64,000 bases of DNA. Origin: an uncultured Kiritimatiellota bacterium (lineage in GTDB: Bacteria; Verrucomicrobiota; Kiritimatiellia; RFP12; UBA1067). Where the stretch lies: positions 20,488 through 84,487 of the forward strand of contig CAKTZI010000011.1 of assembly GCA_934635385.1 (NCBI GenBank). The letters run 5' to 3'. The position numbers were made by a program, and so were the translations under genes. The notes under the pieces were generated by a model that had not been told where the DNA came from, did no database searches, and was given only the letters and a program-made list of their open reading frames with translations. Below, piece by piece: positions 1-21,812 of this stretch. The stretch's first letter is position 1. Every line of letters starts with the position of its first letter.

Positions 1-456
1 CAGCGCCTCGATCGCGGCGGGCGGCGCGTAGAGCGACGTGTCGAGGCACGTGTGAAGCCCCGCCGCCTTGAACCGCCCGAACAGCTCCGCCGCCCACTCC
101 CAGAAGAACAGCGGCTCGCCGCCCGACAGCGTGACGCCGCCGCCCGTGCGGTCGTAGAACGGCCTGTCCTCCAGCGCCCGGACGACGAGCGCGTCCTGCG
201 TCCACGGCCTCCCGTAGAGCCTGAACGCCCGCGTCGGACACGTCGCCTCGTCATGCGTGCAGTGCGCACAACGGCGGCAGAGGTGCCGGAAGCGCGCCTC
301 CTGCGGCCTCGGGTCGATGGACTCCGGGTTGTGGCACCAGACGCAGCGGAGCGGACACCCCTTCACGAAGAACGTCGTGCGCAGCCCCGGCCCGTCGTAG
401 ACGGCCATGCGCTTGACGTCCAGCATCAGCGGCGTCCGATACGGCACTTCACTCAT
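1..456 (-). CDS. Glycyl-radical enzyme activating protein (radical SAM, PFL-AE family). Only the N-terminal 152 codons are present; the 3' end lies outside the window.
   Basis: Absent from the ORF track because it is open at the window edge. Translation from the ATG at 456-454 gives MSEVPYRTPLMLDVKRMAVYDGPGLRTTFFVKGCPLRCVWCHNPES. This contains the CxxxCxxC radical-SAM motif, followed by a Cys-rich ferredoxin-like stretch (CRRCAHCTHDEATCP) and GGGVTLSGGEP. The start overlaps the stop of the upstream gene (ATGA). Confidence 0.85.
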   Translation of the reverse strand, partial: MSEVPYRTPLMLDVKRMAVYDGPGLRTTFFVKGCPLRCVWCHNPESIDPRPQEARFRHLCRRCAHCTHDEATCPTRAFRLYGRPWTQDALVVRALEDRPFYDRTGGGVTLSGGEPLFFWEWAAELFGRFKAAGLHTCLDTSLYAPPAAIEAL

Positions 457-3400
457 TCCGCATGCCTCCAAGTCGAGAACCAGCGCCGCTTCGTCGGGCG
501 CTTCGAGAGGCCGCCGTCAAACCAGTCAGGGTAGGCTTTCAGCACGGCCCCGCCCAGCGGCGCGGCCTCGTATGCGAGATCGTCCGGCCCGGCGGCATCC
601 GCCTTCAGCAGCTCCGCCCACGTCGCCTCCGGCTCGAAGCGCGCGGCGTCGTAAGGCTCCGGGTCGGGCAGCCCCGCCCCGTCGCCGGGGATCAGGAAGC
701 CGGACTGCGTCGGCGCGAGGCGCTCCGGCGCGCGCGTCACGCGCCCCGTCGCCGGGTCGAGCCACTTGCCGTCCGCCGCCAGGGGCCTGGCCGTCCCGGA
801 CGCGTTGACGAGGAAGAAGACCGTCGTCCTCCCGTCCGTCCGCGCGACCTGCCCGAACGGGACGTCGAGCCGCGCCTCCGAGGGATCGCCCCACTGCAGG
901 ACGGCCTGGCACCGGTGGCAGTAGCCGAACCAGGCCTCCTCCGCCCTGCCCCAGACCTGGTTGCGCCCGAAGTGGACGCCCCACCGGCCCATCGTGACGC
1001 CGGGCTTCACGTCGTCGCCCCACGGCTGGTGGACGACCGAGTGGAGGACGAGCCGGTTGACGCCGCCGAGGTACGCGCCGTCCCCGCACCGCTTCAGCTG
1101 GGCCGGCGTCTCCGTGAAGGCGGTCGTCTCCGGCGCGCCCGTGAACGCCTCGGCCTCGATGACGTTGTGGCGCGTCCCGTCCAGGCGCCTCCAGCGCGCC
1201 CACGCGCGGCGGTCGACCTTCGCGGGCCTGTCCGGCGTGAACCAGAACTCGGTCATCAGCCGGTCGACGTGGGGCGCGGCCTCTGCCGTCTCGAACGGCC
1301 CCCCGTACGGCTCGCAGGAGAGCTCCAGCCCCTCCGCGCGCACGCGCCGCCCCACCTCGGCGAAGAGGACGTCTCGGTAGAGGTCCTTCACCGTCCGGTC
1401 GAAGTCGCGCCGGAACCTCGCCGCCTCGGCGGCCGTGTAGAGGTTCGTGTAGCCGCCGAGGACCGGCAGGTACGGCATCGGGTCGTAGCCGCGCCGGCGG
1501 CGGAACTCCTCCGGCATCTCCGGCGTCCACGTCGGCGTCCCGGCCTCGTAGCTGTCGAGGAGGATGTGCGTCAGGCCCGCCGCCCGCAGGTCGGGGCCGA
1601 GCCGCCGGTGCAGCTCGCCGAAGACGGCATCGAGATGGAATCGCACGGCCTCGCGGCTCATCTTGTCGCACTCGAGGCCCCGGTTCGCCCAGTCGCAGGG
1701 CTGCGTGAACGCGCCCATGGGGACGTGCCCGACGGGCACGCCGCGCACCGTGCCGAGGGGCACGTAGTCCGTCCGCCGCGCCGCGCAGTCCGGCTTCTCG
1801 TACCGGCCCGCGTCCTCGTTGTAGACGGGGAAGAGCGCGTTCGCCGCCAGCGGGATCTCGCCGACGTCGCGGACGCCGAAGACGAGCTCGCGCATCGCGA
1901 GGCGCGGGGGGATCCACGTGCCGCCCGTGTGCGTGTAGCCCGGGCAGTTGTGGAGCCCGATCCCGATGCCGCGCCGTTTCCCCTCGGCGCAGGCCCGCCT
2001 CACGCACGTCCACCAGGCGTCCGAGTAGGGCTGCCCGATTCCCGTCGGGACGTTCGCGATGCGCTTGGCCCACGGCACCGTCGCGTCCGCCAGCCCGAAG
2101 ATCGTCGCCGACGTCACGCCCCTGCTCGCCATCCAGTCGAGGTCCTTGACGATGCCCTCCTCGGTGACCTGCCGCCCCATCCAGTGCCACCAGACGCCAA
2201 CGTGCGCCTGCGGGGGTGGATTCGCGAACACCTCCTCCGGCGAGGGACGCTTCTCCGCCGCCGCGCGCACGGGCGCGAGGGACAGGTACCCGGAGACGGG
2301 ACAGGCCACGCGCCGGAGGCCATGTGCGAGGGCGACCGTGCCGGTCGCGCGCCCGAACACGTCATGCGCCGTCGCCTCGGCCGCCGCCGCGAGGTCGAGC
2401 GTGAGCGTCGCCTGCCGCGTCGCGTTGAGGACAAGGGTCGCGCGGTCGCCCGCACACGGCACGACCTGCCCCTCGGCGTAGACGGCCACGACGCGCTCCG
2501 TCGCGTCGGCGGACTCGACGAGCGGATACATCAGCTCCGGATGGTGCGCACGGAACGTCCCCTTGAGCAGCGCCGACCGGTGGCGCTTCGCAAAGCCGAT
2601 CCAGTGGCGAATGACGGCACAATGGCTCTCGGGCAGCGTCGCCAGCCGCATCGAGTACTGCACGACGCCGAAGATCGCGTTCAGGATGACGCGTCCCGCG
2701 TCTTCGGGCGTGTCGTCCGGGCTCCAGACGAGCATGTCGGAATGGACGGCCGTCTCGCCGGACGTCAGGCGCAGGTCCGCGATGCGGCGGCGGTTCCCGA
2801 CCAGGTCCGACGGGCAGTCGGTCGCGCGCAGGATGTTGCCGTACGGGCGGATGCCGGGGCCGATGTACTTCTGCCGGAACTCGACCAGCACGTCCGGCTT
2901 GACCGCGACAAGCGCCGCGCGCACGTCCGTCATCAGGCGCTCCACGCCCTCGGAGACCGTCCTGCAGTCGCGCCCCTTCCAGCCCTCGGCAAATGCAGGG
3001 TCGTTCGCATCCACGGAAAAGGCGTCGATGAAGTCGAGCTTGAGCCCGTCGAAGTCCCAGTCGCGTACGCAGCGGACATACGTGTCGACCAGGTACCGGC
3101 GCACCTCCGGGAAGCGCGGGTCGAGGACGCCGACGGTCTTGCCGCAGCGGAGGAACTTTCCCTCGAACCGCCTGTACGCGGCCGATTCCACGCCGACAAA
3201 CGGCACGGACAGCCAGAGAAGATACTTCTCGATGCCCGCCGCGTGGACGGCGTCGACGTGCGCGCGGAAGTCGGGGAAGCGGCCCTTCGCCGGCAGCCAG
3301 TCGCCCGTCGCGGAGTAGACGTCGCGCGACGTCTCCTTCTGCCAGCCGTCGTCGAGGATCATCGACTTCATGCCGAGTTCCGCCGCGAGGCGCGCCTCGC

Positions 3401-4094
3401 GTTCGAGATCGGCGGCGTGGACGTCCTGCCAGAACGCATACCAGCTCGAATAGAGCGGCTCGAACGCCGCCTCCGGCACGCGGCAGGGGGTCAGCCCCGC
3501 CGTCCGCTCGATCCAGCGCGTCGCCTCGGCGACGGCTTCGCCGAACGGCACGGGCCGGCGATCGACGAGGATCTTCACCTCGTAGGACGAACGCGGCGCC
3601 TCCGGCTGCGTGAAGAAGCGGAAGCGCCCTTCCAGCCGCGCGTCCGTCGAATGGCAGGTGATGGCGAACTTCACCGTCCGCCGGCACTCGGACGCGGCAA
3701 TCAGCAGATGGTTCTCGTCGCTTTCGTTGAAGACGCAGCTGATCGGCGGCATCTGCGCCAGCGCGGCGACGTGGCGCACCGTGCCCCATTCCGACGCGAA
3801 CAGGCGGCTGCGCTCGCTCTCCTCGGAGATGGGCACCCAGCAGTTGTGCGCATCCGCCCCGCTCGTCGTCAGGTAGGCGTCGAACACGGGCGGCGCCGCC
3901 GGGACGGGCGACGTCAGCGAGACGGTGAACACCTCGCGACCGACGGCGTCTTCGCCGCGCGTGACGTCAAACGTCCAGTCTCCCGGCTTCTCGCAGCTCG
4001 TCAGAAGCTCGACGGCCAGCGCCGCGCGGCAGGCGACGGCCGCAACCGCCGCCAGCGCAACCGCCCCTCTTCCCCCGGAAGCGGCGCGCGTCAT
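453..4094 (-). CDS. Two-module secreted glycoside hydrolase. The N-terminal half is GH36/GH27-like (alpha-galactosidase type); the C-terminal ~600 aa is an uncharacterised glycosidase-like module.
   Basis: 1213-aa ORF. It contains MILDDGWQ and DGLKLDFIDAF (KxD), motifs typical of the alpha-galactosidase clan. The C-terminal half begins VGVWWHWMGRQVTEEGIVKDLDWMASRGV, which resembles large Bacteroidota/PVC glycosidases. The N-terminus is hydrophobic and Ala-rich. There are ATGA overlaps at both ends. Confidence 0.7.
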   Translation of the reverse strand: MTRAASGGRGAVALAAVAAVACRAALAVELLTSCEKPGDWTFDVTRGEDAVGREVFTVSLTSPVPAAPPVFDAYLTTSGADAHNCWVPISEESERSRLFASEWGTVRHVAALAQMPPISCVFNESDENHLLIAASECRRTVKFAITCHSTDARLEGRFRFFTQPEAPRSSYEVKILVDRRPVPFGEAVAEATRWIERTAGLTPCRVPEAAFEPLYSSWYAFWQDVHAADLEREARLAAELGMKSMILDDGWQKETSRDVYSATGDWLPAKGRFPDFRAHVDAVHAAGIEKYLLWLSVPFVGVESAAYRRFEGKFLRCGKTVGVLDPRFPEVRRYLVDTYVRCVRDWDFDGLKLDFIDAFSVDANDPAFAEGWKGRDCRTVSEGVERLMTDVRAALVAVKPDVLVEFRQKYIGPGIRPYGNILRATDCPSDLVGNRRRIADLRLTSGETAVHSDMLVWSPDDTPEDAGRVILNAIFGVVQYSMRLATLPESHCAVIRHWIGFAKRHRSALLKGTFRAHHPELMYPLVESADATERVVAVYAEGQVVPCAGDRATLVLNATRQATLTLDLAAAAEATAHDVFGRATGTVALAHGLRRVACPVSGYLSLAPVRAAAEKRPSPEEVFANPPPQAHVGVWWHWMGRQVTEEGIVKDLDWMASRGVTSATIFGLADATVPWAKRIANVPTGIGQPYSDAWWTCVRRACAEGKRRGIGIGLHNCPGYTHTGGTWIPPRLAMRELVFGVRDVGEIPLAANALFPVYNEDAGRYEKPDCAARRTDYVPLGTVRGVPVGHVPMGAFTQPCDWANRGLECDKMSREAVRFHLDAVFGELHRRLGPDLRAAGLTHILLDSYEAGTPTWTPEMPEEFRRRRGYDPMPYLPVLGGYTNLYTAAEAARFRRDFDRTVKDLYRDVLFAEVGRRVRAEGLELSCEPYGGPFETAEAAPHVDRLMTEFWFTPDRPAKVDRRAWARWRRLDGTRHNVIEAEAFTGAPETTAFTETPAQLKRCGDGAYLGGVNRLVLHSVVHQPWGDDVKPGVTMGRWGVHFGRNQVWGRAEEAWFGYCHRCQAVLQWGDPSEARLDVPFGQVARTDGRTTVFFLVNASGTARPLAADGKWLDPATGRVTRAPERLAPTQSGFLIPGDGAGLPDPEPYDAARFEPEATWAELLKADAAGPDDLAYEAAPLGGAVLKAYPDWFDGGLSKRPTKRRWFSTWRHAE

Positions 4095-5284
4095 TTCCCG
4101 TCTCCCCGTCCGACCACACGCCTGACGGCATCGAGGTACGCACGGCCGTTGCGCGTGTCAGGCATGAGCCACGAGCCCTCGGTGTACTCGTTCCAGGCGT
4201 TGATGAGAATCGCGCCCGGCTTCTTGGGGTCTTCCGCCGCGCGCCGCAGCGCCGTGCGCAGCGCCCCCGCGAACTTCTCCGGCGTGGCGTTCGCGAAGAT
4301 GCCCATGTAGGGATAGTGGGACGCCCGCCAGGGGAACGGCTCCGCCGGATCGCAGCGCGCCGTGCAGTCCCATCCGCGCGGAACGATCGGGATGTGCATC
4401 GGCGACACCTCCGCGAGCCCGCAGTTCACCGCGTCAGCCGATTCCACGAGATCGTCGTATTCCATCACGAACTGGCGGCTCCGCTCCATGGCCGAGCCTT
4501 TCTTGGAATGGAAGCCGTTGATGGAGTAGACGGACGTCGAGTCGAAGCCCGCCTCGACCGCAGGGCCGGCGTTCCCCGCGTTGAAGACCATCGCGTTGAA
4601 GTGGACGGGCGGAAGTCCCTTCGCCCGCACGAGCGCCTGCGCCTTCGCCAACGTCTCCCGCGTCTTCGCAGGGCCGCCCATGTCCTTCACGAACCGGTCG
4701 CTCGAATACATCGAGAAGAAGATCTTCCCGTCCTTCCGGTAGTAGCCGGGATCGGCGAAATAGGTCTGCGCGCAGTAGGCGAACGCGGCGAGGAAGTCTT
4801 CCTCGGTGCGCGCGAGCTTCCAGAGCCAGTGCTTCTTCTCCTCGCCGAACTTCGACTGGAACGGCACGTCGCGATCATGGTAGGCCCACATCAGGGCGAA
4901 CTTCATGCGGCTGCGGTTCGCCGCCTTCATGAAGCCCCGCTCCAGACCCTCGTGCTGAATGGGCTTTCCGTTCGCCCAGTACCAGTCGTAGAGGAAGACG
5001 TCGATGCCGGCGTCCGCCGCGAGGTCGATCTCCTGCGCGGCGACCTTCGGGTCGCTTTCGTCGTAGAAGCCCATGAGGGGAATGACCGGCTGGTGGTGGC
5101 CGGGGAACTTCGCCACGGTGTTCGAGACGCACATCCATTCGGTCGTCCCCTTCCCGTAATACGCCTCCCATTCGGGGTAGACGTGCCATTCGGGGTAGTA
5201 GATGCACAGGACGTCGATCTTGTCGGGTTCGCCGCCCAGCGCCGTCAGGGCCAGCAGCGACAGCATCGGAATCAGTTTCTTCAT
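4091..5284 (-). CDS. WbsX-family (PF14307-like) glycosidase/glycosyltransferase-fold protein with a Sec signal peptide.
   Basis: MKKLIPMLSLLALTALGG signal. IYYPEWHVYPEWEAYYGKGTTEW...FPGHHQPVIPLMGFYDESDP...GIDVFLYDWYW matches the conserved WbsX N-terminal block. An AAGGAG Shine-Dalgarno sequence lies upstream. Confidence 0.75.
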   Translation of the reverse strand: MKKLIPMLSLLALTALGGEPDKIDVLCIYYPEWHVYPEWEAYYGKGTTEWMCVSNTVAKFPGHHQPVIPLMGFYDESDPKVAAQEIDLAADAGIDVFLYDWYWANGKPIQHEGLERGFMKAANRSRMKFALMWAYHDRDVPFQSKFGEEKKHWLWKLARTEEDFLAAFAYCAQTYFADPGYYRKDGKIFFSMYSSDRFVKDMGGPAKTRETLAKAQALVRAKGLPPVHFNAMVFNAGNAGPAVEAGFDSTSVYSINGFHSKKGSAMERSRQFVMEYDDLVESADAVNCGLAEVSPMHIPIVPRGWDCTARCDPAEPFPWRASHYPYMGIFANATPEKFAGALRTALRRAAEDPKKPGAILINAWNEYTEGSWLMPDTRNGRAYLDAVRRVVGRGDGK

Positions 5285-5329
5285 GTCTTTTCTCCTTTGT
5301 AGTTTCTCTTGTGAGGTTCGCCCGCGAAA

Positions 5330-7549
5330 TCACAGGCCTTCCTGCGCCTCGGCGGTCGCGAGGAAGTGCAGCTGCTCGGCGCGGGAGAGGTCGACCCAGC
5401 GCACGTTCCAGCCGCAGACGCGCACCTGCAGGTCGGGGTAGCGCTCCGGGTGCGCCATCGCGTCGCGCAGCGTCGCCGCGCGGAAGCAGTTGAAGTGGAT
5501 GCACTGCCCGCCCCGTTCGGCATACGCCGTGAGGAGCGCGACGAGATGCGCCGCCGCCTCCGGGTTCTCCGCGAGCGTCATCGGCACGATGACGTCCGAG
5601 ATGAACCCGTCCGCCGCCTCGGCCTGGTCGAGCTTCGTCTGCGAGAGGATGAGCGCGGTCGGGCCGCCCGTGCCGCAGCCCGCCGTCGCGGAATTGTTCC
5701 GCGAGAGCGTCTCGCCCGCCTTGCGGCCGTCCGGCGTCGCCGCCGTCTGCCGTCCGAGCAGGAGGTCGTTGTCGATCGACCAGAGCCCCATCTGGAACGT
5801 TCCGCCATGCCCGTTCGGCTCGCGGTTGAGGCGGCGCGCGAGAGCGTCGGACACCTGCCGCGCAAAGGCGTCCGCGCGGTCGTCGTTGTTGCCCCACTTG
5901 GGCGGCACGCGGCGCGCCCGGAGGCGCAGCGTCTCGTGTCCCGCCCAGTCGGCCTTCAGGATGTCGCGCAGTTCGGCCATCGTGACGGCCTTCGCCTCGT
6001 CGACGAGATACCGCACGGCGGCGAGCGCATCGACGACGGTCGCGAGCCCCGCGCACATGACGCCGGACTGGTTGTACTTGAGGCCGCCCGCACAGGCGTC
6101 GCGCGCGTTCGCCACCGCGTCGCGGAACGCGCCCGACATGAGCGGCGAGGGGTTGAGATCCGTCCAGCTCTCGGCGTAGACGCGCGCCGCCGCGCACGCC
6201 CGCGCCGCCACTGCGTCGAGCTGGCGCAGATAGGCGTCCAGAAAGCCGGCGGCGTCCGCCGGGAGCGGCAGGTCGGGGCCGAGTCGGAAGCCGTCGAACG
6301 TGCAGCCGGCGTTGAGCGCAAGCTCAAGCGGCTTGGCGAGGTTGATCCACGCGGTCATCGACGCAATGATCTCGCGGCCCTGGATGCCCGGCTCGTAGCA
6401 GCCGATCAGCACGGCGTCCGCCGCGTCGGCGGGATCCTTTCCGCGCCGCACGAACATCTCCTGCGCCACGTCGTCGTTGAGAAAGACGATCGAGCTGCGT
6501 CCGCGCGCGATGAGGCGGCAGACCTTCTGCAGCTGCTCCGGCGGCGTGCGGCGGCCGAAGCGGAACGTCAGCTTCGGGTTCACGCGGTTGAGTTCATCGT
6601 GCAGCTCAAAGGCGATCTCCGTCAGCTCGTTCCAGACGGGCGCGCCGTCGCGGTCGCAGCCGCCGAGGCCGACGTTCTTGTTGTTGACGAAGTTCTGGAT
6701 CCAGTACTTGTCGAAGGTCGCCCGCACGAGCGCCTTCGCGTCCGCGCGCGTCAGGCGTCCCGCCGCGAGGTCGTCGCGGTAGAAGCGGATGAAGAGGCGG
6801 TCGAAGAGCCCCTGCGTGCGCACGTACTCGCCCTCGGCCTCCTGGCAGCGGTCGTAGAGGAGCCACAGCTGCAGCGCCTCGCGGAACGTGCGTGGCGGAT
6901 GGGCCGCGATCTCGCGCAGCGTCGCCGCACAGGCCGTCGCGCCCCGCGCGTCGGCGACGTCCGCCCAGCGGCGGGCGAACGCGGACATCGCGTCGTAGAC
7001 TTCGGCGACGCAGTCGAGGAACAGGCGTTCCGCATCCGTCGCCGCCGTCTCGCGCCGCGTCCGCGCACGCGCGGCCAGTCCCGTCGGGCCGAGCGTCAGC
7101 ACCGACTCCCAGTCGGGACAGGTGTGGCTCGTGTCGAGACAAGCGTGGTAGGCGCCGTGCGTGTCGCCGCGCCGAACGTCCGTGCCGCCGCCCGTCGCGG
7201 CGAACTCGGGGCGTCCCCGCGCGAACGCCGCGACGCGCACGTCGCGCAGCTCCATCAGGAGCGTGTCGTCGGGACACCAATCGACGAACGTGTCGTCCGC
7301 GCGCACGGCGAGACGCGCGTGCGCAAAGAAGGCGACGAGCTGCTTCGTGCGCGTGACGACGAAGGGACAGCCCTTCGTCTCCTCGGCGATGCGCAGGAGA
7401 AGCGCGCGCAGGTCGGCGCGCGACAGCCCCGAACCGTCCACGATCTCGGCGGTGCGGTCAAAGGGGTTTGGCTTCTTCGCGGCCACCAGATTCGGCGGCA
7501 GGGCGGCAAGCGCCGCCGTGCCCACGACAAATTCCCGCCGGCTCATCAT
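5330..7549 (-). CDS. Glycyl-radical enzyme (PFL2 / dehydratase-lyase clade, divergent and short at 739 aa) with an N-terminal twin-arginine signal.
   Basis: The C-terminus HFNCFRAATLRDAMAHPERYPDLQVRVCGWNVRWVDL is the glycyl-radical fingerprint. LIGCYEPGIQGRE is the Cys-x-Glu thiyl loop. The N-terminus is MMSRREFVVGTAALAALPPNLVAAKK. A GGGGGAAGGA Shine-Dalgarno sequence precedes the start. Confidence 0.9.
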   Translation of the reverse strand: MMSRREFVVGTAALAALPPNLVAAKKPNPFDRTAEIVDGSGLSRADLRALLLRIAEETKGCPFVVTRTKQLVAFFAHARLAVRADDTFVDWCPDDTLLMELRDVRVAAFARGRPEFAATGGGTDVRRGDTHGAYHACLDTSHTCPDWESVLTLGPTGLAARARTRRETAATDAERLFLDCVAEVYDAMSAFARRWADVADARGATACAATLREIAAHPPRTFREALQLWLLYDRCQEAEGEYVRTQGLFDRLFIRFYRDDLAAGRLTRADAKALVRATFDKYWIQNFVNNKNVGLGGCDRDGAPVWNELTEIAFELHDELNRVNPKLTFRFGRRTPPEQLQKVCRLIARGRSSIVFLNDDVAQEMFVRRGKDPADAADAVLIGCYEPGIQGREIIASMTAWINLAKPLELALNAGCTFDGFRLGPDLPLPADAAGFLDAYLRQLDAVAARACAAARVYAESWTDLNPSPLMSGAFRDAVANARDACAGGLKYNQSGVMCAGLATVVDALAAVRYLVDEAKAVTMAELRDILKADWAGHETLRLRARRVPPKWGNNDDRADAFARQVSDALARRLNREPNGHGGTFQMGLWSIDNDLLLGRQTAATPDGRKAGETLSRNNSATAGCGTGGPTALILSQTKLDQAEAADGFISDVIVPMTLAENPEAAAHLVALLTAYAERGGQCIHFNCFRAATLRDAMAHPERYPDLQVRVCGWNVRWVDLSRAEQLHFLATAEAQEGL

Positions 7550-7565: not shown

Positions 7566-10500
7566 TTACCGGATGATGAGCAGCGCGCCGCCGCAGCGCA
7601 CCGTCAGCACGAGCGCCGTGTCCGTCCGCGTCAGGGAGAACATGCGCGAACCGGCCTTGTCCCGCGCGAGCGTGAACGTCGTCTGCGCGAGGCCGCTTCC
7701 GCAGGTGATGAGCGGATAGTCACCGGCCTTCAGCTTGTTCGGCTTGCCCGTCAGGTCGATTTCGCACGTGGCGGGCAGCGTGAGCGCGGACGCCTTGAGG
7801 TCGATCGCGTCAGCCACGCCGTCCGCCGAGCAGGCGAACGCCAGCGTCGTCTCGTCCGAAATCTCGACCGCGAGCGACGCACCGTCCGCAATCTGCGGCA
7901 GGCGGCGGAGCGACGACGCCCGCACCGTCCCTGCGCCCGTGAGCGTCGCCCCGTTCAGCGCCACGTAGCCGCTCGGCAACAGCCCCAGCCACTTCCAGGA
8001 GAGGTAGGCTTCGGCCGTCTTCAGCTCGGCTTCATCCAGCCGCCGGTTCCACATGAGGATCTCGCCCTGAACGGCCGCGCGCGTGTCCGCGCCGTAAAGG
8101 CGCTCGCTGTTGTAAAGGTACTCGAAGCAGACGGGCCCGTACGCGCCGTCCGGCTGGACGGTCAGGATCTCCGGACGACCGCGAAAGCCCTGCGCCGAGC
8201 CGTCCACCGTCTCGCCGTCGAGGCGCGTCACGCCCTTCGTCAGCACGTCCGCCGTGCCGGCCGGGTAGATGGGCGACGCGGCAGACTGCCCTTCGCGCAC
8301 CTTGTAAAGCGTCTGCGCCGCACCCGGCAGGACGCTGTTGCCGTCCACGAACGGCTGGCCGCCGCCGTACTTGGAGTCCTGTGCCATGACGAGCGTCTGG
8401 AATGCGTTCGTGACGACGTTCCCGGTCCAGGCGCCGTTCGCGGCGACGCGGAAGCGCAGCGTGTTGCCGTCGCTGGCCTGCGTCACGCCCTTCCAGTCGC
8501 TCGTCGTGACGTTCGAGTAGTCGAGCCACGCGCGCGCCGGGCCGAACCCGTGCGCCGACACGTCCTTCCACGGTGCGCGGTCGGTGGTCGTCGCCGTCAG
8601 GGCGAACGCGCCGTCCGTCGCCGTCGCGCCGAAGCGGCGGTCATGGAGCCACGTCACGCGCGACGCGGGCGACTTCGGCTTGGCCGTCGACGTGGTGTCC
8701 TGCTCGACAAGCGCACCTTCCGCGTCGGGGTCGAACCAGCCCGTCATGTCCTTCGTGTCAAGGGCGGTCGCGTCGGGCGGCGGCAGCGCGCCGTCGATCG
8801 TGAGCGTCGCCCCGTCGAGGTGGATCGTCCCCGAAAACGCGCCGGCGATCGCGGCGTCGGCCCGGACGTTCACCGTGCCGGTGCCGTAAAGGGCCGCGCG
8901 CGTCGTCGTGCCCGTCGGGCCTTTGTACTGCGCCGTCAGCCCCCACTTCGTCGCGAGATGCCACTCGATCTGCTGACGCTGCGCGTCCGTGAGTTCCCGG
9001 TCGAAGAGCAGCACTTCGGCATAGGCCTGTCCGCCGTTGTCCACGTTGTTCTTCGCCCCATAGCCCAACCCGGAGAAGCTGTTCGTCGTCGAGCCGAAGT
9101 CAATGGCGATGACCTGCCAGCCGCCGTTCAGCCCCGTCGTCGTCGGCTCGACCGCCTCGCCATCGACCCAGACGCGCGCACCGATCTCGTTGGCCTTCAG
9201 AATCGCGTCCTCCTTCGTGTGCGCGCCGACCTCGCCGCCGCGCAGGAAGTTCGCGTTGCCGCCGAGAAGCGCACCGCCGCCGCCCTGCTGCGATCCGTAG
9301 ACGAGAATCGCCGCGCGCGGCTTCAGGACGACATCCGCCGACACATCGTCTGCCGAGGACGTCTTGGTGAAGAAGATGCGCGGCAGGACCTGGTTGAGCG
9401 GTTCGCAGTCCCGCGCCTCCGTCTCGTCCGCGAAGGTCGCCCGGAAGCTGAGGCTGGGACGGTCGAACGACAGGTAGTCGTGTCCGTTCAGCCCGCCGCG
9501 CACACGGCGCGGATGGCAGAAGGTCATCACGTTGTGGTTCTCGTTGTAAAGCGCGTCGTAGCGACTGTTCCAGAGCCGCACGTCGCACGGCGTGGCGCGG
9601 CAGTCCGACCAGCCCTTGACGAAGGGATTGCCGTCCCTGTCGGAGATTGTCTGCCCGACCTGAAGCGGATTCACGCTCGCGTAGTTGGTGTAGGAGTTCT
9701 CGTAGGTGACGACCAGGTTGGAGATCGTCTCGCCCGCCGCCGCGTCCACCCACAGGAGCGGAAGCGCCGCCCATTCGGCCTGTCGTTCCAGCAGGTTGAT
9801 GGTCGAGCCGTCTTCGCCGCGAATCGGCATCTGCGCACCGTTGTCCGTCGCCGGCGCATAGTCGAGCGTCGCCCCGTTCCGCACGGTGATCTGCACGCGC
9901 GCGTTCACCGACGTCACGCACGCCGTCTCGCGCACGTCCATCGCCGCGCCGAGGCCCGGCGCCGTCGGTGTGCCGTCCGTCACGCGCAACGTCTTCGTGC
10001 CGTCGCCGTTGTCCGCAAACGACGCCGTCGCGAAATCCAGCGCCGCGCCGTCCGCCGCGTCGAGGCACACGAAGTCCGCCGCCGTCAGGGTGCAGGACGT
10101 GGGCACCGTCAGGATCGCCCGGTCGAAGCCGGACTTGGACGGCAGCAGAATGCGCACCGCCCCCGCCGTCTTCAGCGTGTCCGTCACGCGCGCCGTCCCG
10201 CAATCGGCATCCGTCGCGTCGAGAAAGCCGCCCGCGCGCACGTCGAGCGTGCCGATGACCGTCTGCGTACCCGCCGCGAGCTTCAGCGCGCCGCCTGCGT
10301 TCAGCTGGAGGGTGCCAAAGGTCGCCGTTTCGGACGCCGCCCACGCCGCGTTCCCCTTGCCGACCTCGACGATGCCCGCATACGGCGCGAAAAGCGCGAA
10401 TTCGGAAGCCGCTTTCGCGCCCGCCGCGAGGACAAGCCGTGCCGCGCTTTTCGAGCCGTCGCCCCGTCCGTTCCAGACGACACGCGCCGCCGCGTCGTTC

Positions 10501-11180
10501 CGCAGCGTGACGGTCGCGGACGCAGGAGCGTTCAGCGTCCAGTCGAGGCCGTAGACCGTCCGTGCGCCACTGGCCGTGCCGGCCTTGACCAGGAGTTCGG
10601 CGCCCTCCGCAAGCGTCAGCGTGCCGACCGTCTGCGGATCGGCCGAGCTGCGCGCGGCGAAGCTGTACTGATTGCCCGTGCCGACCACGCGCACGTCCGT
10701 TCCGAGATCGACGACGCTCGTGCCCTTCGAGCAGTGGGTGATCGTGCCGGACGAGAGCGTGAGCGACTTGCCGGGGAACGTGTAGCGCTCCGTCGCGCCC
10801 TCTTCGTTCGGCGTCGCCAGCGGCAGGTCTTTCCCCGACACCCAGTAGTCGTAGGAGGCGTTCGGCGGAAAGAAGCCCGTGGCCGTCGTGTCGGCCGCAC
10901 CGTTGCGGTAGAGCGTCCAGCGGTTGACCTTCGAGGAGGCCGTGAGCGAACTGCCGAAGAACCCTTTCCCGTAGTCCGCGTCAGACATGACGGTCGTCTT
11001 CGCGTCGCCGTTCAGCGTGTTCGCGTAGAGGCTGTCCGCATTGTAGTCCGACTTCGTCAGGACGGCATACGTCCCGTCGGACGGCAGGGCCGCAAAGCCC
11101 GCCAGCGACACAAGCCCCGCCGCAACGGCGACAAGTCCGTGACGGCACGTCTTTTTCTTTTGCGTGATTATCTTTTTCAT
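7566..11180 (-). CDS. Giant secreted surface protein with beta-helical/autotransporter-type repeats and at least two LamG (concanavalin-like) domains.
   Basis: 1204 aa with a signal peptide. Repeated GTLTLAEGAELLV- and TLQLNAGGALKLAAG-type strands. LamG domain ends are AEVLLFDRELTDAQRQQIEWHLATKWGL and GEILMWNRRLDEAELKTAEAYLSWKWLGL. An AAGGAG Shine-Dalgarno sequence is present. Only 16 nt separate it from the GRE gene. Confidence 0.85.
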   Translation of the reverse strand: MKKIITQKKKTCRHGLVAVAAGLVSLAGFAALPSDGTYAVLTKSDYNADSLYANTLNGDAKTTVMSDADYGKGFFGSSLTASSKVNRWTLYRNGAADTTATGFFPPNASYDYWVSGKDLPLATPNEEGATERYTFPGKSLTLSSGTITHCSKGTSVVDLGTDVRVVGTGNQYSFAARSSADPQTVGTLTLAEGAELLVKAGTASGARTVYGLDWTLNAPASATVTLRNDAAARVVWNGRGDGSKSAARLVLAAGAKAASEFALFAPYAGIVEVGKGNAAWAASETATFGTLQLNAGGALKLAAGTQTVIGTLDVRAGGFLDATDADCGTARVTDTLKTAGAVRILLPSKSGFDRAILTVPTSCTLTAADFVCLDAADGAALDFATASFADNGDGTKTLRVTDGTPTAPGLGAAMDVRETACVTSVNARVQITVRNGATLDYAPATDNGAQMPIRGEDGSTINLLERQAEWAALPLLWVDAAAGETISNLVVTYENSYTNYASVNPLQVGQTISDRDGNPFVKGWSDCRATPCDVRLWNSRYDALYNENHNVMTFCHPRRVRGGLNGHDYLSFDRPSLSFRATFADETEARDCEPLNQVLPRIFFTKTSSADDVSADVVLKPRAAILVYGSQQGGGGALLGGNANFLRGGEVGAHTKEDAILKANEIGARVWVDGEAVEPTTTGLNGGWQVIAIDFGSTTNSFSGLGYGAKNNVDNGGQAYAEVLLFDRELTDAQRQQIEWHLATKWGLTAQYKGPTGTTTRAALYGTGTVNVRADAAIAGAFSGTIHLDGATLTIDGALPPPDATALDTKDMTGWFDPDAEGALVEQDTTSTAKPKSPASRVTWLHDRRFGATATDGAFALTATTTDRAPWKDVSAHGFGPARAWLDYSNVTTSDWKGVTQASDGNTLRFRVAANGAWTGNVVTNAFQTLVMAQDSKYGGGQPFVDGNSVLPGAAQTLYKVREGQSAASPIYPAGTADVLTKGVTRLDGETVDGSAQGFRGRPEILTVQPDGAYGPVCFEYLYNSERLYGADTRAAVQGEILMWNRRLDEAELKTAEAYLSWKWLGLLPSGYVALNGATLTGAGTVRASSLRRLPQIADGASLAVEISDETTLAFACSADGVADAIDLKASALTLPATCEIDLTGKPNKLKAGDYPLITCGSGLAQTTFTLARDKAGSRMFSLTRTDTALVLTVRCGGALLIIR

Positions 11181-15524: not shown

Positions 15525-18458
15525 CTACTTGCTGACGCGGATCAAATAGAAGCCGCTCGCGCCGCCCTTCACCGTCACCTTCGGCATCCACGGCGCGCCG
15601 TCGCCGACGGTCGAGGCCCCGGCCTTGAGCTCGCCCAGAGACGCTCCCTCGTAAAGCCGGTAGACGAGGCCGGGCCTCGTCTTGACGGTCTTCAGCACCG
15701 GGTCTTCCGCCGTCAGCCTGACTTCCGCGCCATTCGCCGTGTCGAGCGCTTCGTTCGCGTACTTCGCCTTCACCGTCGCCGCGCCGAGATCGATGACGCC
15801 ATTGACCGCCGCCGGGATGTCGAGATAGTCCGTGATGTCCGCCGCGTCGCGCACGATCCGCACCTTCGCGCCGTTCGGCGCGACCGACTTCACGTCGGGC
15901 GAAACTCTCACCGTCGCCACGTCCACACCGTCCGGAATCGTCACCTCCGCGACGGCTGCGGAGAACGAGAAGTCCGTCAAGGCGACGCATCCCCCGAAGA
16001 ACCCGTCGGGAATCTCCGTCACGTCCTCGCCCAACGCGACATGGGTCAGTTGTGCGTATGCCGACGGGAACAGGTCCTTCAGCGTGGTCGACTTTACGAC
16101 CGCCCCCGAATTCAACGCAACGCGAGCGAGGCTGCTGCAACCGTCGAACGCCTCGTCGCCGATGTTCGTCACGCCAGCGGGCAACGTCAACGACGTGAGA
16201 CTGCTGCATCCGTAGAATGCATAACTACCGATGCTCGCCACGCCATCGGGTATCGTCATCGACGTGAGGCCACTGCAGCCGCAGAACGCAAAGTTGCCGA
16301 TGCTCGTCACACTGTCGGGCATCGTCACCGACGTAAGGCCGCTGCATTCGAAGAACACGCTGCCGCTGATGTTCGTCACGCCGGCGGGTATCGTCGCCGA
16401 GGTATCGTCTCCAACATAGTCGTACAGAACTCCCCGTATGACAACAAACCCTTCGAGATCCGCAAGCCCGTCACAACACTTGAACGCGCTGTCGCCGATG
16501 CTCGTCACGCTATTGGGTAACCTTATCGACCTTAGGCCGCTGCAACCTCTAAACGCATCGTCGCCGATGCTCGTCACGCCGTCGGGTATCATCACCGAGG
16601 TGAGGCCTTTTCGATAGAAGAACACGCCGCCGCCGATGCTCGCCACGCCGGCGGGTATCGTCACCGAGGTATTGTCTCCGACATAGTCGCATAGAACCCC
16701 CTTTATGATAACAAAACCTTCGGAGTCCGCAAGCCCGTCACAGCCGGAGAACGCATAATCACCAATATTCGTCACGCTATCGGGTATCGTCACCGACGTG
16801 AGGCCGCTGCAGCCGGAGAACGCCCAGTCGCCGATCTCGAGCTTCGCTTCCGTCACGCCGTCGGTCTCGTAGACCTTGACGAACGCCACGCGCTGAAGCG
16901 TCTTGACGCCATGAAACGCGCTCTCGCCGATCATCTTGCAGTATTTCGCGAGTTTCAGCGTCGTCATGCCGCACGTCGAGTTCCCGAACGCGTCCTCCTT
17001 GATCTCCGTCACCGGGATGCCGTCGATCGTCTCCGGGATCACGAGTTCGGTCGATCCGAGCGCCTCGCCGCCGAGTCCGTCGATTCGCATCGTGCCGTCG
17101 GCCTTGACGGTCGCCCGGTAGTTGTGGACGAGCAGCGTGCCGTAGACCTGCGTGACGGCGTAGTTCGACGCGACCGTGCCCGCCGTGAACGCATAGGCGA
17201 AGGTGTTCTCGTAGGATCCGGGGGCGGTCACGGACGCGAAGTCCGAGAACGTCACGCCGTCCGCGCCGACGAACCCGTTGCCCGAAATGACAGGCGCCGT
17301 CTCGCGGGAATGCGCCGCGCCGTCCCACGCCCATTCGGCGTCCGCGCTCGTGAAGGTCAGTTCGCGCGGCGCGATCGCGAAGGTCGCCTCGACCGTGCCC
17401 CCGTAGTTGCCGACGCCCGTGACGGTGACCTTCGCCGTGCCCGCGTTCACGTTGGCGGCGTAGGCGATGGTGTAGTCGGACGACGAGAAGCTCGCGAGCG
17501 TGTCCGTGACGGAAACCGTCGGCGTCTTTGCCGTGCCGTCGTACTTGTAGCCCGCTTCGGGGATTCCGAGAAGCGTGAGCGTCGCGTTCGAGATTTGGCG
17601 CGGATTCACCGTGACGGTCGCCGCGTTCGTCACGCCCGCATAGCCGTCCGCGAGCGCACGATACCAGACTTTCGTTGCCGTGCAGACGTTCGTGAAGAGA
17701 ATCGCGTCCGCCTGCCAGGGGCCGTCCTTGGCGCGTGCGTATTCGACCGTCGCGCCGCTCGCCGGCGTCGTGACGGAAACGGAGATGCCGTGCCCCTCGC
17801 CGTCATAGCCGACATTCACGACCGCTGCCGTCGCACGGACGGTCGGATTCTCCGGGTCGGTTACGTCAACTTTCGTCAATGTTCCCTCCACGGTGTCGTC
17901 GCCATCTCTCAATTGCATCCTGAATGAGGACTTTCCGTCGTTGCAAGTGCATATAGTGTCTCGGAAGACGTAGGTCGCGTCAAACTCGTCGTCCTCCTCG
18001 TCATTCCAGCACCAGCACGTTGCGATGACGTGGCAGTCGCGACTCTCGATGATCTTCCATCCCTTGTTGTCGCTGTCGCTTTCGTCGGTCTCCCCGTCGT
18101 CGAAGATGTATTTCTCGTGTGACCCGATGGAGGTCAGCGTCAACTCATAGTTCCCCTTGTAGACTTCGGATGAGCCATCGTGCTCATATACGACATTCAC
18201 GACCGCTCCCGTCCACGTCCCCAAGACCCAACTCGGCCAGCCCTCGGTTGGAACCAAGTTGTCCGCATCAATCGTCGCCTGAAGCGTCTTCTTGGCGGAA
18301 GATGCCTCAAGGCCGGAATTCCCATTCCCTCCAGATGTTCCATTCTCGTACCATGTCGCCGTCCAGGCGTTGGCGGCGACGAGCAACGTGCCCACGAACA
18401 CGTAGGATCGTTTTACCACATGTCTAATCTTCAGTTGTTTCATGACTTTCCGATTCAT
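15525..18458 (-). CDS. BspA-type leucine-rich-repeat (LRR_5) cell-surface protein with Ig-like/MBG-type domains.
   Basis: Repeated IPDSVTNIGDYAFSGCDGL, IPDGVTSIGDDAFRGCSGL and LPNSVTSIGDSAFKCCDGL units. YDGTAKTPTVSVTD-type Ig modules. Signal peptide present. The track start at 18491 is a GTG; the first ATG (MNRKVMKQL) is at 18458. Confidence 0.85.
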   Translation of the reverse strand: MNRKVMKQLKIRHVVKRSYVFVGTLLVAANAWTATWYENGTSGGNGNSGLEASSAKKTLQATIDADNLVPTEGWPSWVLGTWTGAVVNVVYEHDGSSEVYKGNYELTLTSIGSHEKYIFDDGETDESDSDNKGWKIIESRDCHVIATCWCWNDEEDDEFDATYVFRDTICTCNDGKSSFRMQLRDGDDTVEGTLTKVDVTDPENPTVRATAAVVNVGYDGEGHGISVSVTTPASGATVEYARAKDGPWQADAILFTNVCTATKVWYRALADGYAGVTNAATVTVNPRQISNATLTLLGIPEAGYKYDGTAKTPTVSVTDTLASFSSSDYTIAYAANVNAGTAKVTVTGVGNYGGTVEATFAIAPRELTFTSADAEWAWDGAAHSRETAPVISGNGFVGADGVTFSDFASVTAPGSYENTFAYAFTAGTVASNYAVTQVYGTLLVHNYRATVKADGTMRIDGLGGEALGSTELVIPETIDGIPVTEIKEDAFGNSTCGMTTLKLAKYCKMIGESAFHGVKTLQRVAFVKVYETDGVTEAKLEIGDWAFSGCSGLTSVTIPDSVTNIGDYAFSGCDGLADSEGFVIIKGVLCDYVGDNTSVTIPAGVASIGGGVFFYRKGLTSVMIPDGVTSIGDDAFRGCSGLRSIRLPNSVTSIGDSAFKCCDGLADLEGFVVIRGVLYDYVGDDTSATIPAGVTNISGSVFFECSGLTSVTMPDSVTSIGNFAFCGCSGLTSMTIPDGVASIGSYAFYGCSSLTSLTLPAGVTNIGDEAFDGCSSLARVALNSGAVVKSTTLKDLFPSAYAQLTHVALGEDVTEIPDGFFGGCVALTDFSFSAAVAEVTIPDGVDVATVRVSPDVKSVAPNGAKVRIVRDAADITDYLDIPAAVNGVIDLGAATVKAKYANEALDTANGAEVRLTAEDPVLKTVKTRPGLVYRLYEGASLGELKAGASTVGDGAPWMPKVTVKGGASGFYLIRVSK

Positions 18459-18769
18459 AGGGTTCCGCACCCCAAGTTTTACGGAAGGCACAGTCGCCGG
18501 GCGCAGAAAAAGGAACGGCGTGCCTTCACATCATGTTCCACCTGAGGCACGACCAAGCGCCTTATCAAAAACACGGAATAGAAGACACGCCGCGTGTGAC
18601 CGACACGCGACGCATCTTACATATTCGGCTCTTGATTGAAGATTTGGTCGGTTTTCAGATGGAGCCAAATACGCAAGAATGCGTACGCCTCGCGGGCCTC
18701 GGATGGGTTTCCGCGAGTCCTTCTCCTTTCGGCCCCATTGGGCAACCGTAGGTAAAAGGTTTTGCCGCC

Positions 18770-20870: not shown

Positions 20871-21812
20871 ATGACGAGATCTGACAAGACACAGGGGCAG
20901 GGCCGAAAGAACAGGACGCACAAGACGCAGAGGACGCACAAGACAGGCTTGGCGAACCCTGCGGCCTGTTCGCCTTGCGGGTCTTCTGCTTCAGCGTCCC
21001 CTGCGTCCTGTTCGTCCCGTGCGTCCTGTTTGCCCCCAGCCGGCACCACCGCCCTGACCGACCCGGAGAAGGAGGCTCTGCGCGCGGCATTCTTCGCCGC
21101 GCTCGGGCCGAACGCCGCCGTCTTCAAGGAACTGCTGGAGCGCGCCCCCGAGCTGTGCTTCTACATGAAGGACCGCGAGGGCCGCATCATGGCCCTGAAC
21201 CGCCGCAACTGCGAAGTCTGCAACATCCGCAGCGAATGGGACGCGATCGGCCGCACGTCACGCGACCTCTTTCCGCCGACGCTCGCCGACGACTACATGG
21301 AGCTGGATCACGAGGTCCTGAAGACGGGGCGCCCCGTCCTCCAGCGCGTCACCGCCCACCCCGCCGACTACTCCAACCGCCTGATGATCTCCGACGTCTA
21401 TCCGCTGCGCGACCGGCGCGGACGCCTCATCGGCACGGCCCGCGCCTACCGGCTCACGAGCCGCGACTCGTCCGAGGCGCGCAACTACAACGCCCTGCGC
21501 GCCGTCGCGACCGAGATCGACCGGCGCTATGCCGAACCCCTTTCGCTCGACGCCCTGGCCCAGCGGGCGGGCATGTCGAAGAGCACGTTCAAGCGCACGT
21601 TCACCCGGCTTTTCGAGGTCTCGCCCGGCCAGTACCTGCTGCGCGTGCGGCTCAACGCCGCGCGGCGGCTGCTGGAGACGACGGACAAGCTCATCTCCGA
21701 CGTCGCGCTCGACTGCGGCTTCTACGACCAAAGCCACTTCAGCCGCCTCTTCCGCCGCGCGCGCGGCCTCACGCCCGGCGCCTATCGCCGCGCCCACGCG
21801 CAGACGGGATAG
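20871..21812 (+). CDS. PAS-domain AraC/XylS-family transcriptional regulator.
   Basis: The C-terminus LSLDALAQRAGMSKSTFKRTFTRLFEVSPGQYLLRVRLNAARRLLETTDKLISDVALDCGFYDQSHFSRLFRRARGLTPGAYRR is the AraC HTH. A PAS-like block (FYMKDREGRIMALNRRNCEV) precedes it. The first ~55 codons are encoded by a palindromic repeat element. Confidence 0.8.
   Translation: MTRSDKTQGQGRKNRTHKTQRTHKTGLANPAACSPCGSSASASPASCSSRASCLPPAGTTALTDPEKEALRAAFFAALGPNAAVFKELLERAPELCFYMKDREGRIMALNRRNCEVCNIRSEWDAIGRTSRDLFPPTLADDYMELDHEVLKTGRPVLQRVTAHPADYSNRLMISDVYPLRDRRGRLIGTARAYRLTSRDSSEARNYNALRAVATEIDRRYAEPLSLDALAQRAGMSKSTFKRTFTRLFEVSPGQYLLRVRLNAARRLLETTDKLISDVALDCGFYDQSHFSRLFRRARGLTPGAYRRAHAQTG
20909..21031. repeat. 123-bp inverted-repeat element (GGACGCA-type) within the 5' end of the AraC ORF.
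   Basis: Arms are gaacaggacgcacaagacgcagaggacgcacaagacagg and cctgcgtcctgttcgtcccgtgcgtcctgttt. The centre contains a small hairpin, ggcgaac...gttcgcc. Confidence 0.75.

Follow-up and report, generated by a model that had tools for sequence, protein, structure and literature searches.

To our knowledge, glycyl radical enzymes (GREs), which are sensitive to oxygen, are regarded as strictly cytoplasmic proteins that act on small metabolites. The closest described systems to the one considered here are the B12-independent glycerol dehydratase (GDH) and 1,2-propanediol dehydratase (PD; PDB 1r8w, 5i2g), together with CutC and HypD, which have the Cys-x-Glu architecture of the eliminases. In the dehydratases, the His at the position of GDH His164 is the proton donor to the leaving group. 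Another member of the superfamily, YbiW/PflD (PDB 8id7, 8id0, 8yjo), binds the sugar-derived ligands 1,5-anhydroglucitol-6-phosphate and 1,5-anhydromannitol-6-phosphate; since it acts on phosphorylated substrates, a cytoplasmic location is implied. Among radical S-adenosylmethionine (SAM) enzymes, the anaerobic sulfatase-maturating enzymes (anSMEs) are cytoplasmic maturases of exported glycan-degrading sulfatases.

Here we analyse a 64,000-nucleotide stretch of DNA (the window; NCBI GenBank assembly GCA_934635385.1, contig CAKTZI010000011.1, positions 20,488 to 84,487) from a gut Kiritimatiellae bacterium. The beginning of the window carries on its minus strand one operon of this organism, which codes for a giant protein, a GRE, a WbsX-family protein, a large glycosidase and a GRE activase. 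We propose, with moderate confidence, that this GRE is an exported enzyme of the 1,2-eliminase type which acts on glycan-derived sugars and is activated before it leaves the cytoplasm through the twin-arginine translocation (Tat) pathway. The proposal rests on sequence features of the GRE, its relatives and their activases.

A predicted Tat signal on a divergent glycyl radical enzyme

The GRE gene (5330-7549, minus strand) codes for 739 aa, a divergent PFL2-type enzyme of the 1,2-eliminase type. Its first 24 residues (7478-7549, minus strand) are predicted to form a Tat-type signal peptide, which the first-pass annotation of this DNA had overlooked and which is probably the main point of the operon. 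The N-terminus reads MMSRREFVVGTAALAALPPNLVAA, followed after the putative cleavage position by KKPNPF, and combines an S-R-R-x-F twin-arginine motif (S3-R4-R5-E6-F7-V8 in the n-region) with a mildly hydrophobic core and a cleavage-type site V-A-A. The AlphaFold2 (AF2) model of the protein is poor for residues 1-29 and confident from residue 30. An internal start that would remove the signal was considered and rejected: the next Met is residue 99, which lies in the conserved core, so that no downstream start could drop the signal segment, and a Shine-Dalgarno-like sequence precedes Met1/Met2.

The protein matches PF02901 (E 2e-90) and PF01228 (E 1e-16). Its AF2 model (pLDDT 91.3) has the ten-stranded barrel of PFL-like enzymes and superimposes with a TM-score of about 0.8 on PFL2, GDH, CutC and PD at 22-25% identity, PDB entries 2f3o, 1r8w and 5fau included. 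The first-pass annotation had assigned it to the eliminase clade on account of its Cys-x-Glu loop, and this assignment stands. The loop G383-C384-Y385-E386-P387 (6389-6403, minus strand), with the predicted thiyl-radical Cys and general-base Glu, aligns with GDH C433/E435 and with GCVEP of CutC. In addition, His142 (7124-7126, minus strand), within D-x-S-H-T-C-P-D-W, aligns with GDH His164 and with CutC Asp216. The glycyl radical motif R710-V-C-G713-W-N715 (5405-5422, minus strand) falls within the PF01228 match.

These elements are strongly conserved. Both GCYEP and RVCGWN are invariant in alignments of the GRE family, the latter at each of R710, C712, G713, W714 and N715. H142 is found in 26 of 26 aligned sequences and, like C384, G713 and R710, in all 123 full-length representatives, while E386 occurs without exception in the 26-sequence alignment A1 and in 117 of the 123 representatives. 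Candidate pocket residues are H142, E386, S397, M398, H581, W590, D595, R617 and C625.

As judged by its sequence, the GRE is a Cys-x-Glu 1,2-eliminase type enzyme that stands outside the characterised equivalogs. It is about 23% identical to GDH, PD, CutC, HypD and PFL2, and it scores below every NCBIfam equivalog cut-off (HypD, 240 bits vs 1100; HpfG, 238 vs 1000; CutC, 212 vs 1050) as well as below that of the PFL2-3 subfamily model (284 vs 678). The comparison with characterised GREs that the first-pass annotation had called for thus placed the enzyme close to none of them. Its illustrative substrate, an alpha-galactosyl-glycerol type compound yielding glycerol, finds no support, as no characterised equivalog is reached and GDH Asp447 aligns to Met398 of the GRE. 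We moderately favour the view that the enzyme belongs to a large, uncharacterised and sugar-associated branch of the PFL2-type 1,2-eliminases, marked by GCYE, RVCGWN and the invariant His.

The open reading frames (ORFs) were found exactly where the first-pass annotation had put them, in the minus-strand order GRE, WbsX-family protein, glycosidase and activase. The first gene of the unit is that of the giant protein (7566-11180, 1204 aa), the stop of which lies 16 nt before the GRE start; the spacer, GGGGGAAGGACGGACG, resembles a Shine-Dalgarno sequence. After the GRE follow the WbsX-family gene (4091-5284, 397 aa), the large glycosidase gene (453-4094, a fusion of 1213 aa) and the radical SAM activase gene (1-456), which runs off the window, with 152 of 257 aa inside. 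A consensus scan for terminators gave no site at the gene junctions, in agreement with the earlier statement that the GRE follows the giant gene without one; its sole match on the minus strand (123-110) lies within the activase gene. Of the three ATGA start/stop overlaps claimed before, those at the WbsX/glycosidase and glycosidase/activase junctions are present, but the GRE and WbsX genes are separated by a 45-nt spacer (5285-5329) with the Shine-Dalgarno-like sequence AAAGGAG and no overlap. No second GRE or activase was found within the window.

Signals, activases and fusions among the relatives

A search of 5.8 billion proteins yielded 219 relatives of the GRE, the best 120 of which (55-96% identity) were used. 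The few homologues with a named source come from metagenome-assembled genomes (MAGs) of Kiritimatiellia or Verrucomicrobiae. Signals were typed with a second script and by eye, since a first classifier missed the less hydrophobic Tat-type signals. By script and eye, about 110 of 119 homologues, from gut and rumen Kiritimatiellae, carry a Tat-like or Sec-like signal; the script alone scored 111 of the 119 as signal-bearing, with 29 of the twin-arginine (RR) type and 82 Sec-like. Only P0114 and P0115 clearly have no signal, and a few short gene calls are incomplete. The two classes differ, in the manner of genuine Tat and Sec signals, in their maximum 9-residue hydropathy (mean 2.00 for the RR class vs 2.74 for the non-RR class, p 5e-9; 0.70 for cytoplasmic relatives), and the h-region of the window GRE has a value of 2.14. 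The Tat model TIGR01409 (cut-off 16.7 bits) is passed by the homologue P0016 (23.6 bits) and by a second, unrelated GRE type at locus L045 (22.9 bits).

Scans of genome and metagenome collections added 80 further GRE loci. The clade of at least 52% identity, mostly from Kiritimatiellae MAGs, bears signals. In relatives at 32-47% identity (Lentisphaeria, Victivallales, Clostridia), the N-terminus is a short cytoplasmic helix, W.TF...R..LE.QY, without a signal. When 1.84 billion cluster representatives were searched with a profile, 7726 proteins matched at E<=0.001 and 2156 at E<=1e-30; the script classified 139 of the best 150 matches (>=348 bits) as lacking a signal peptide. Since the wider family is mostly signal-less, the predicted export signal is a derived feature of one clade. 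The family, which comprises hundreds of clusters, is represented in gut metagenomes from humans, Hadza, goats, yaks and horses.

Several members of this family deserve a separate description. P0115 (L042:7709-12166) and P0114 form a Kiritimatiellae subclade at 57% identity in which the signal was lost or never present; here a plain activase gene overlaps the GRE gene, which abuts the gene of a 763-aa secreted protein with zero gap. The second GRE type at L045 (13503-15869, 788 aa) is 27% identical to the window GRE, carries a clear Tat signal, MTRRNFIGGSAALMGAAVAG, and has the glycine motif RVCGF; a GCxE Cys loop was not found in it by the motif script. It sits downstream of the first GRE/activase pair and of a 55-aa ferredoxin-like gene. 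A third exported subfamily (L090:7719-10004, L091:1451-3814, L092:7739-9985, L093:7671-10004, L094:7695-9992 and P0341) has the motifs GC[YF]E and RV[CA]GWN and is 30-33% identical to the window GRE, as measured for L090-L092. Its signals are mostly of the Sec type, with a Tat-type signal in P0341, and its genes lie in GH106/GH28/GH2/GH109-like loci. On a long-read Lentisphaeria chromosome (L037:10061-11953), a GRE homologue is broken into three match segments, the second of which is immediately preceded by an in-frame stop, reflecting either a pseudogene or assembly indels.

The last gene of the window operon had been called a GRE activase, and this is borne out. The fragment in the window matches TIGR02494, and the full 257-aa protein, encoded on an identical Hadza gut metagenome contig (L039:11685-12458), reaches 222 bits with a cut-off of 174. 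The window activase has a CX3CX2C motif, one auxiliary-cluster motif and no signal peptide. An N-terminal extension was considered for it and rejected: there is an in-frame stop 20 codons upstream, and what lies between does not look like a signal.

A different arrangement was observed where a Sec-type GRE has an adjacent activase. In all six such loci (L045/L065, L071, L090, L092, L093, L094), which cover two GRE subfamilies, the activase ORF has a conserved N-terminal extension, M..T-R-[KR]-x-F-[IVM]..S..A-A-F-A-V-S-P-M..A.G-R, followed by the usual KTPLMLD start. The clade of extended activases comprises at least 120 clusters (P0121-P0240; 82-100% identity, 269-288 aa). Among the 120 listed, 117 have the extension, and the other three begin inside it at an internal Met. 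The pair after the Thr is mostly RK, with a true RR in about 18 of the clusters listed, and the hydropathy of the extension (2.02) is at the level of the Tat class. Taken together, these features are suggestive of a Tat-like signal, in which case export of a radical SAM activase would be predicted here for the first time. The genes concerned (L045:12241-13065, L071 and L090-L094 at 10001-10831/10837) always lie beside a Sec-type exported GRE where seen.

GREs with a Tat-type signal thus go with a plain activase (three lineages, at least 12 loci, the window included), GREs with a Sec-type signal go with a Tat-like activase (the six loci above), and neither partner has a signal at L042 and in distant clades. 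This complementarity is what would be expected of working signals and of a radical that has to be put on an already folded protein.

In addition, GRE domains occur as natural fusions with carbohydrate-active enzyme (CAZyme) and related domains. P0241 (1509 aa) joins a GH78 rhamnosidase to a GRE that shares 56% identity with that of the window; P0338, with P0390 and P0392, joins a GH2 mannosidase-like domain to a GRE in three full-length members on separate contigs; and P0366 and P0343, which are mutually independent, join a CE7 acetyl esterase to a GRE. The script classified the N-termini of P0241, P0338, P0366 and P0343 as Sec-like, and the same was concluded by eye for P0037, a nucleoside-hydrolase-like fusion with three members (P0393 and P0394 being the others). 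GCYE is present in all 11 fusion proteins checked and RVCGWN in ten of them, with RVTGWN in P0330. The script found no RV[CT]GWN motif in P0338, yet PF01228 matches this protein. More GRE fusions, with a signal-peptide-like N-terminal segment and a CAZyme or unassigned domain ahead of the GRE domain, are P0061, P0362, P0351 and P0330 (the Pfam scan covered the fusions other than the last two).

Operon partners and the link to glycan degradation

The first-pass annotation had described the two proteins encoded between GRE and activase as secreted and glycosidase-like, and both indeed have signal-peptide-like N-termini. The WbsX-family protein is confirmed as such by PF14307 (E 2e-48). Its AF2 model (pLDDT 90.7) gives GH99 endo-alpha-mannosidases as top Foldseek matches (TM 0.6-0.68, 17-18% identity), and its homologues carry the NCBI name 'GH99-like domain-containing protein'. 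The residues N362, W364, N365, E366, T368, E369 and G370 are invariant, and the N-E-x-x-E-G among them resembles the GH99 catalytic motif. By sequence the protein remains outside GH99 (PF16317, 21.4 bits with a cut-off of 33), and a PDB sequence search with it gave no match. Judged from the model, it is probably a glycoside hydrolase with a GH99-like TIM-barrel fold and not a glycosyltransferase.

The large glycosidase had been described as a GH36-like protein of two modules. Two modules are present, and the N-terminal half (2235-4094, minus strand) consists of a signal peptide and a weakly GH36/clan-D-like (Melibiase) module; the C-terminal half (453-2234, minus strand), however, is a strong match to GH106 alpha-L-rhamnosidases. 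For the N-terminal module, the match to PF02065 is weak and partial (39 bits; residues 215-311, covering 96 of 347 profile positions), the matches to GH36 alpha-galactosidases in the PDB have E values of 3e-9 and weaker, and the identity to two cytoplasmic Melibiase-like genes just upstream of the GRE and activase at L023 is 33-36%. The C-terminal module matches PF17132 (E 9e-81; 273 bits, cut-off 29), PDB entries 5mqm/5mwk (E 1e-54), which we take to be the GH106 rhamnosidase BT0986, and the GH family protein 6q2f (E 6.5e-49). It is predicted to be a GH106 alpha-L-rhamnosidase-like module.

The giant protein starts with a signal peptide, and the tag at its C-terminus reads ...GGALLIIR. It gave no Pfam match even at E<0.1 and no PDB sequence match, and the LamG label it had received was rejected. 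Homologues of it are encoded directly upstream of GRE homologues at L001, L002, L047 (with a 4-nt overlap), L048 and L049. A homologous giant partner in all loci was likewise rejected: only some of the upstream giants (L002, L047, L048, L049) are homologous, and the others resemble the window protein by the C-terminal tag only. This tag, which recurs on large secreted proteins encoded beside exported GREs, consists of 4-6 hydrophobic residues and a terminal Arg or Lys (ALLIIR, LYIILK, FVIAVR, FTIVVR, MFIVR, VLIYR, VMILFR). It was seen in the window (7566-7590, the giant) and in neighbours at L040, L042, L045, L046 and L047, and may be an unrecognised sorting signal. As part of the explanation we prefer, it seems reasonably probable from the N-terminal sequences that all products of the operon except the activase are exported, that is, the giant protein, the GRE, the GH99-like hydrolase and the GH36-like/GH106 fusion.

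Conservation of the order GRE, WbsX, GH36-like gene and activase in relatives, on which the first-pass annotation had staked its operon model, was rejected: only L001 and L039, at 96-100% identity to the window, show it. Where identity drops to 84%, the gene after the GRE is that of WbsX at L002, whereas at L040 unrelated genes of the opposite strand come next; neither locus has an activase within reach. Among the remaining lineages in which an activase is seen, its gene mostly comes directly after the GRE gene, often with overlapping stop and start codons. More widely conserved than this order is a homologue of the giant gene directly upstream of the GRE gene. The tie between GRE and glycosidases itself holds, as it recurs in unrelated arrangements and in the natural GRE-CAZyme fusions, and we regard a functional tie of the GRE to glycan degradation as strongly supported despite the unconserved order.

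CAZyme genes neighbour the GRE gene in nearly every exported GRE locus: GH92 and a pectate-lyase-like protein at L040, GH43 with GDSL at L044, GH5 at L047, GH106 at L016 and L090, GH28 at L091 and L092, GH2, a GH109-like protein, SASA, AXE1 and Melibiase at L092 and L093, and a GtaA-type hairpin GH at L094. At L023 (Victivallales), two Melibiase-like genes directly precede GRE and activase, and all four products have no signal peptide, so that the same association exists in a cytoplasmic version. A Gfo/Idh/MocA oxidoreductase gene flanks the cytoplasmic GRE relatives in four of four loci examined, and NAD-epimerase, fucose-isomerase-like, SIS/CBS, BNR and DHDPS-family genes are further neighbours of such relatives. 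Among the neighbours in 14 annotated GRE loci there were no microcompartment shell Pfam families, and no aldehyde dehydrogenase is among the neighbours listed at annotated loci.

Some other genes in these regions should be mentioned. At L092 (12141-13601 and 13776-18002), genes for a GH109-like Gfo/Idh/MocA protein and an FAD oxidoreductase, both with RR-type Tat-like N-termini, follow GRE and activase, and another FAD oxidoreductase there begins with a Sec-like segment; the predicted exported Gfo/Idh/MocA protein mirrors the Gfo/Idh/MocA genes beside cytoplasmic GRE relatives. Proteins of the FGE-sulfatase family (PF03781) are encoded near GRE loci at L039:16222-16811, downstream of the activase, and at L091:5233-6573. 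In the window, a protein with PAS_4 and AraC-type domains (20871-21812, plus strand) has the same architecture as proteins near the GRE loci L047 (3923-4675) and L093 (6710-7450), which makes it a candidate regulator of GRE operons. Upstream of the unit, the window also codes for a 988-aa protein with BspA-type leucine-rich repeats (15525-18491, minus strand; PF13306, E 1e-73), and leucine-rich repeat proteins are present at L046 and L092 too.

Proposed route, competing explanations and known systems

According to our proposal, the GRE would fold in the cytoplasm, where the activase, encoded last in the operon, would generate the glycyl radical at Gly713 with the help of SAM. The folded, radical-bearing enzyme would then cross the inner membrane by Tat, via its SRREF signal, and in the periplasm work together with the giant protein, the GH99-like enzyme and the GH36-like/GH106 fusion. 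There it would catalyse a radical C-O cleavage next to a hydroxyl-bearing carbon, most likely a 1,2-elimination or dehydration with C384 as thiyl radical, E386 as base and H142 as proton donor. As substrate we envisage a sugar or an oligosaccharide opened up by the co-encoded glycosidases; probably it derives from rhamnose-containing pectic or host glycans, which are suggested because rhamnosidase (GH106, GH78) and GH28 partners recur. GREs with Sec-type signals could not be activated before export and therefore appear to rely on an activase with a Tat-like signal of its own. It is possible, although we hold this only tentatively, that gut and rumen Kiritimatiellae run a complete extracytoplasmic glycyl-radical system in which GREs exported by Tat or Sec, or fused to secreted rhamnosidase, GH2 or esterase domains, are activated before Tat export, as in the window, or in the periplasm by a radical SAM activase with a Tat signal of its own, and cleave C-O bonds of glycans by radical elimination. 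Such a system would amount to a new class of non-hydrolytic CAZymes and to the first extracytoplasmic radical SAM/GRE pair. Full-text literature searches turned up no account of GREs that are exported or that are linked or fused to CAZymes.

Several points weigh against the proposal. PF10518 (TAT_signal) matches GRE residues 1-17 with 18.9 bits (E 0.0014), below the gathering score of 22.7 and hence only suggestive when taken alone, and TIGR01409 gives no match to the window GRE. RR variants of the activase extension reach 13-15 bits on TIGR01409 and RK variants do not match. As about two thirds of the family bear Sec-type signals, a general solution cannot lie in activation ahead of export, and many exported GRE genes have no activase gene within 6-10 kb. 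The specificity-lining positions of the GRE are unlike those of every characterised GRE. Finally, we know of no precedent for the export of a radical-bearing GRE, nor of a glycyl radical shown to pass through Tat; activation in the periplasm would need extracytoplasmic SAM and a reductant, for which we know of no precedent either.

The model implied by the first-pass annotation was that of a cytoplasmic GRE which, together with its activase, processes an imported product of the glycosidases, for instance a diol derived from rhamnose or fucose, the N-terminal segment being unused or a mere tether. It has some appeal, as all characterised GREs are, as far as we know, cytoplasmic, the relatives at 32-47% identity are signal-less with an adjacent activase, the Tat score of the window GRE is below threshold, and GH106 enzymes free L-rhamnose, the catabolism of which feeds a GRE-type propanediol dehydratase. 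We nevertheless consider it unlikely. It is contradicted by the breadth of the signals (about 110 of 119 homologues), with switches between Tat and Sec and class-typical hydrophobicity, and by the fusions, in which the GRE domain follows a Sec signal peptide and a secreted CAZyme domain. Moreover, the enzyme is not close to PD or GDH (about 23% identity, with Met398 in place of GDH Asp447), and the neighbours listed include neither microcompartment shell families nor aldehyde dehydrogenases.

Two further explanations accept export. The first sees in the exported protein a non-radical periplasmic enzyme or binding protein built on the GRE barrel, with the activase serving another, cytoplasmic GRE. 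In its favour, an enzyme that leaves by Sec cannot have been activated beforehand, an activase gene is missing from the vicinity of many exported paralogues, and no SAM chemistry is known to us from the periplasm. The invariance of G713, R710, C384 and H142, and the near-invariance of E386, across exported and cytoplasmic members argue against it, however, as do the translational coupling of the window activase in an operon whose sole GRE is the exported one and the conserved Tat-like extension gained by activases beside Sec-type GREs; we regard this explanation as distinctly improbable. The second places enzyme and activation outside the cytoplasm throughout the family: the activase would hitchhike with the Tat-exported GRE, or the genome would have a further activase gene of the Tat type at another site, and the radical would be made in the periplasm. 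The pairing of extended activases with Sec-type GREs in six loci, and the fusions behind Sec signals, which must fold outside the cytoplasm, speak in its favour. For the window, the activase has neither an extension nor room for one, and, more generally, the need for extracytoplasmic SAM and reductant is left unexplained and the activase extension stays below threshold on Tat hidden Markov models, so that we consider it very doubtful.

If GREs are indeed exported into the setting of polysaccharide degradation, radical enzymology would extend to the periplasm, and anaerobes of gut and rumen would have a new chemical strategy for glycan breakdown. This raises the question of how a radical borne by a protein, or else the SAM-dependent apparatus that generates it, crosses a membrane, and the two complementary signal arrangements make this question directly testable.

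Among known systems, the GRE resembles GDH and PD, with which it shares the fold (TM about 0.8), the Gly radical motif, the Glu two residues after the Cys, the His of the GDH His164 type and a dedicated activase of the TIGR02494 type. It differs from them in sequence (about 23% identity, GCYE instead of GCVE, Met398 at GDH Asp447), in its mature N-terminus, which is about 50-60 residues shorter and preceded by a signal peptide, and in its genomic setting, which is that of CAZyme loci and not of diol or microcompartment loci. CutC and HypD rank high among its matches by sequence and by fold and have the Cys-x-Glu architecture of the eliminases in common with it, but they occur in other genomic contexts and are not exported, CutC has Asp216 where the GRE has His142, and the scores of 212 and 240 bits fall far from the respective cut-offs of 1050 and 1100. 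YbiW/PflD has a similar fold, but the match is limited to 155-183 bits, its substrates are phosphorylated and a signal peptide is absent.

With respect to the proposed route, the nearest parallels are cofactor-containing enzymes exported by Tat, exemplified by the GH109-like Gfo/Idh/MocA protein at L092. They share the S/T-R-R-x-F motif, the mildly hydrophobic h-region and the logic of folding and loading in the cytoplasm before export; in the case of the GRE, however, the 'cofactor' would be a protein-based glycyl radical. The anSMEs resemble the proposed activation in that a cytoplasmic radical SAM enzyme readies a protein that works outside the cytoplasm. They differ from it in that they introduce a stable covalent formylglycine into an unfolded chain before Sec export, whereas a glycyl radical needs the folded barrel.

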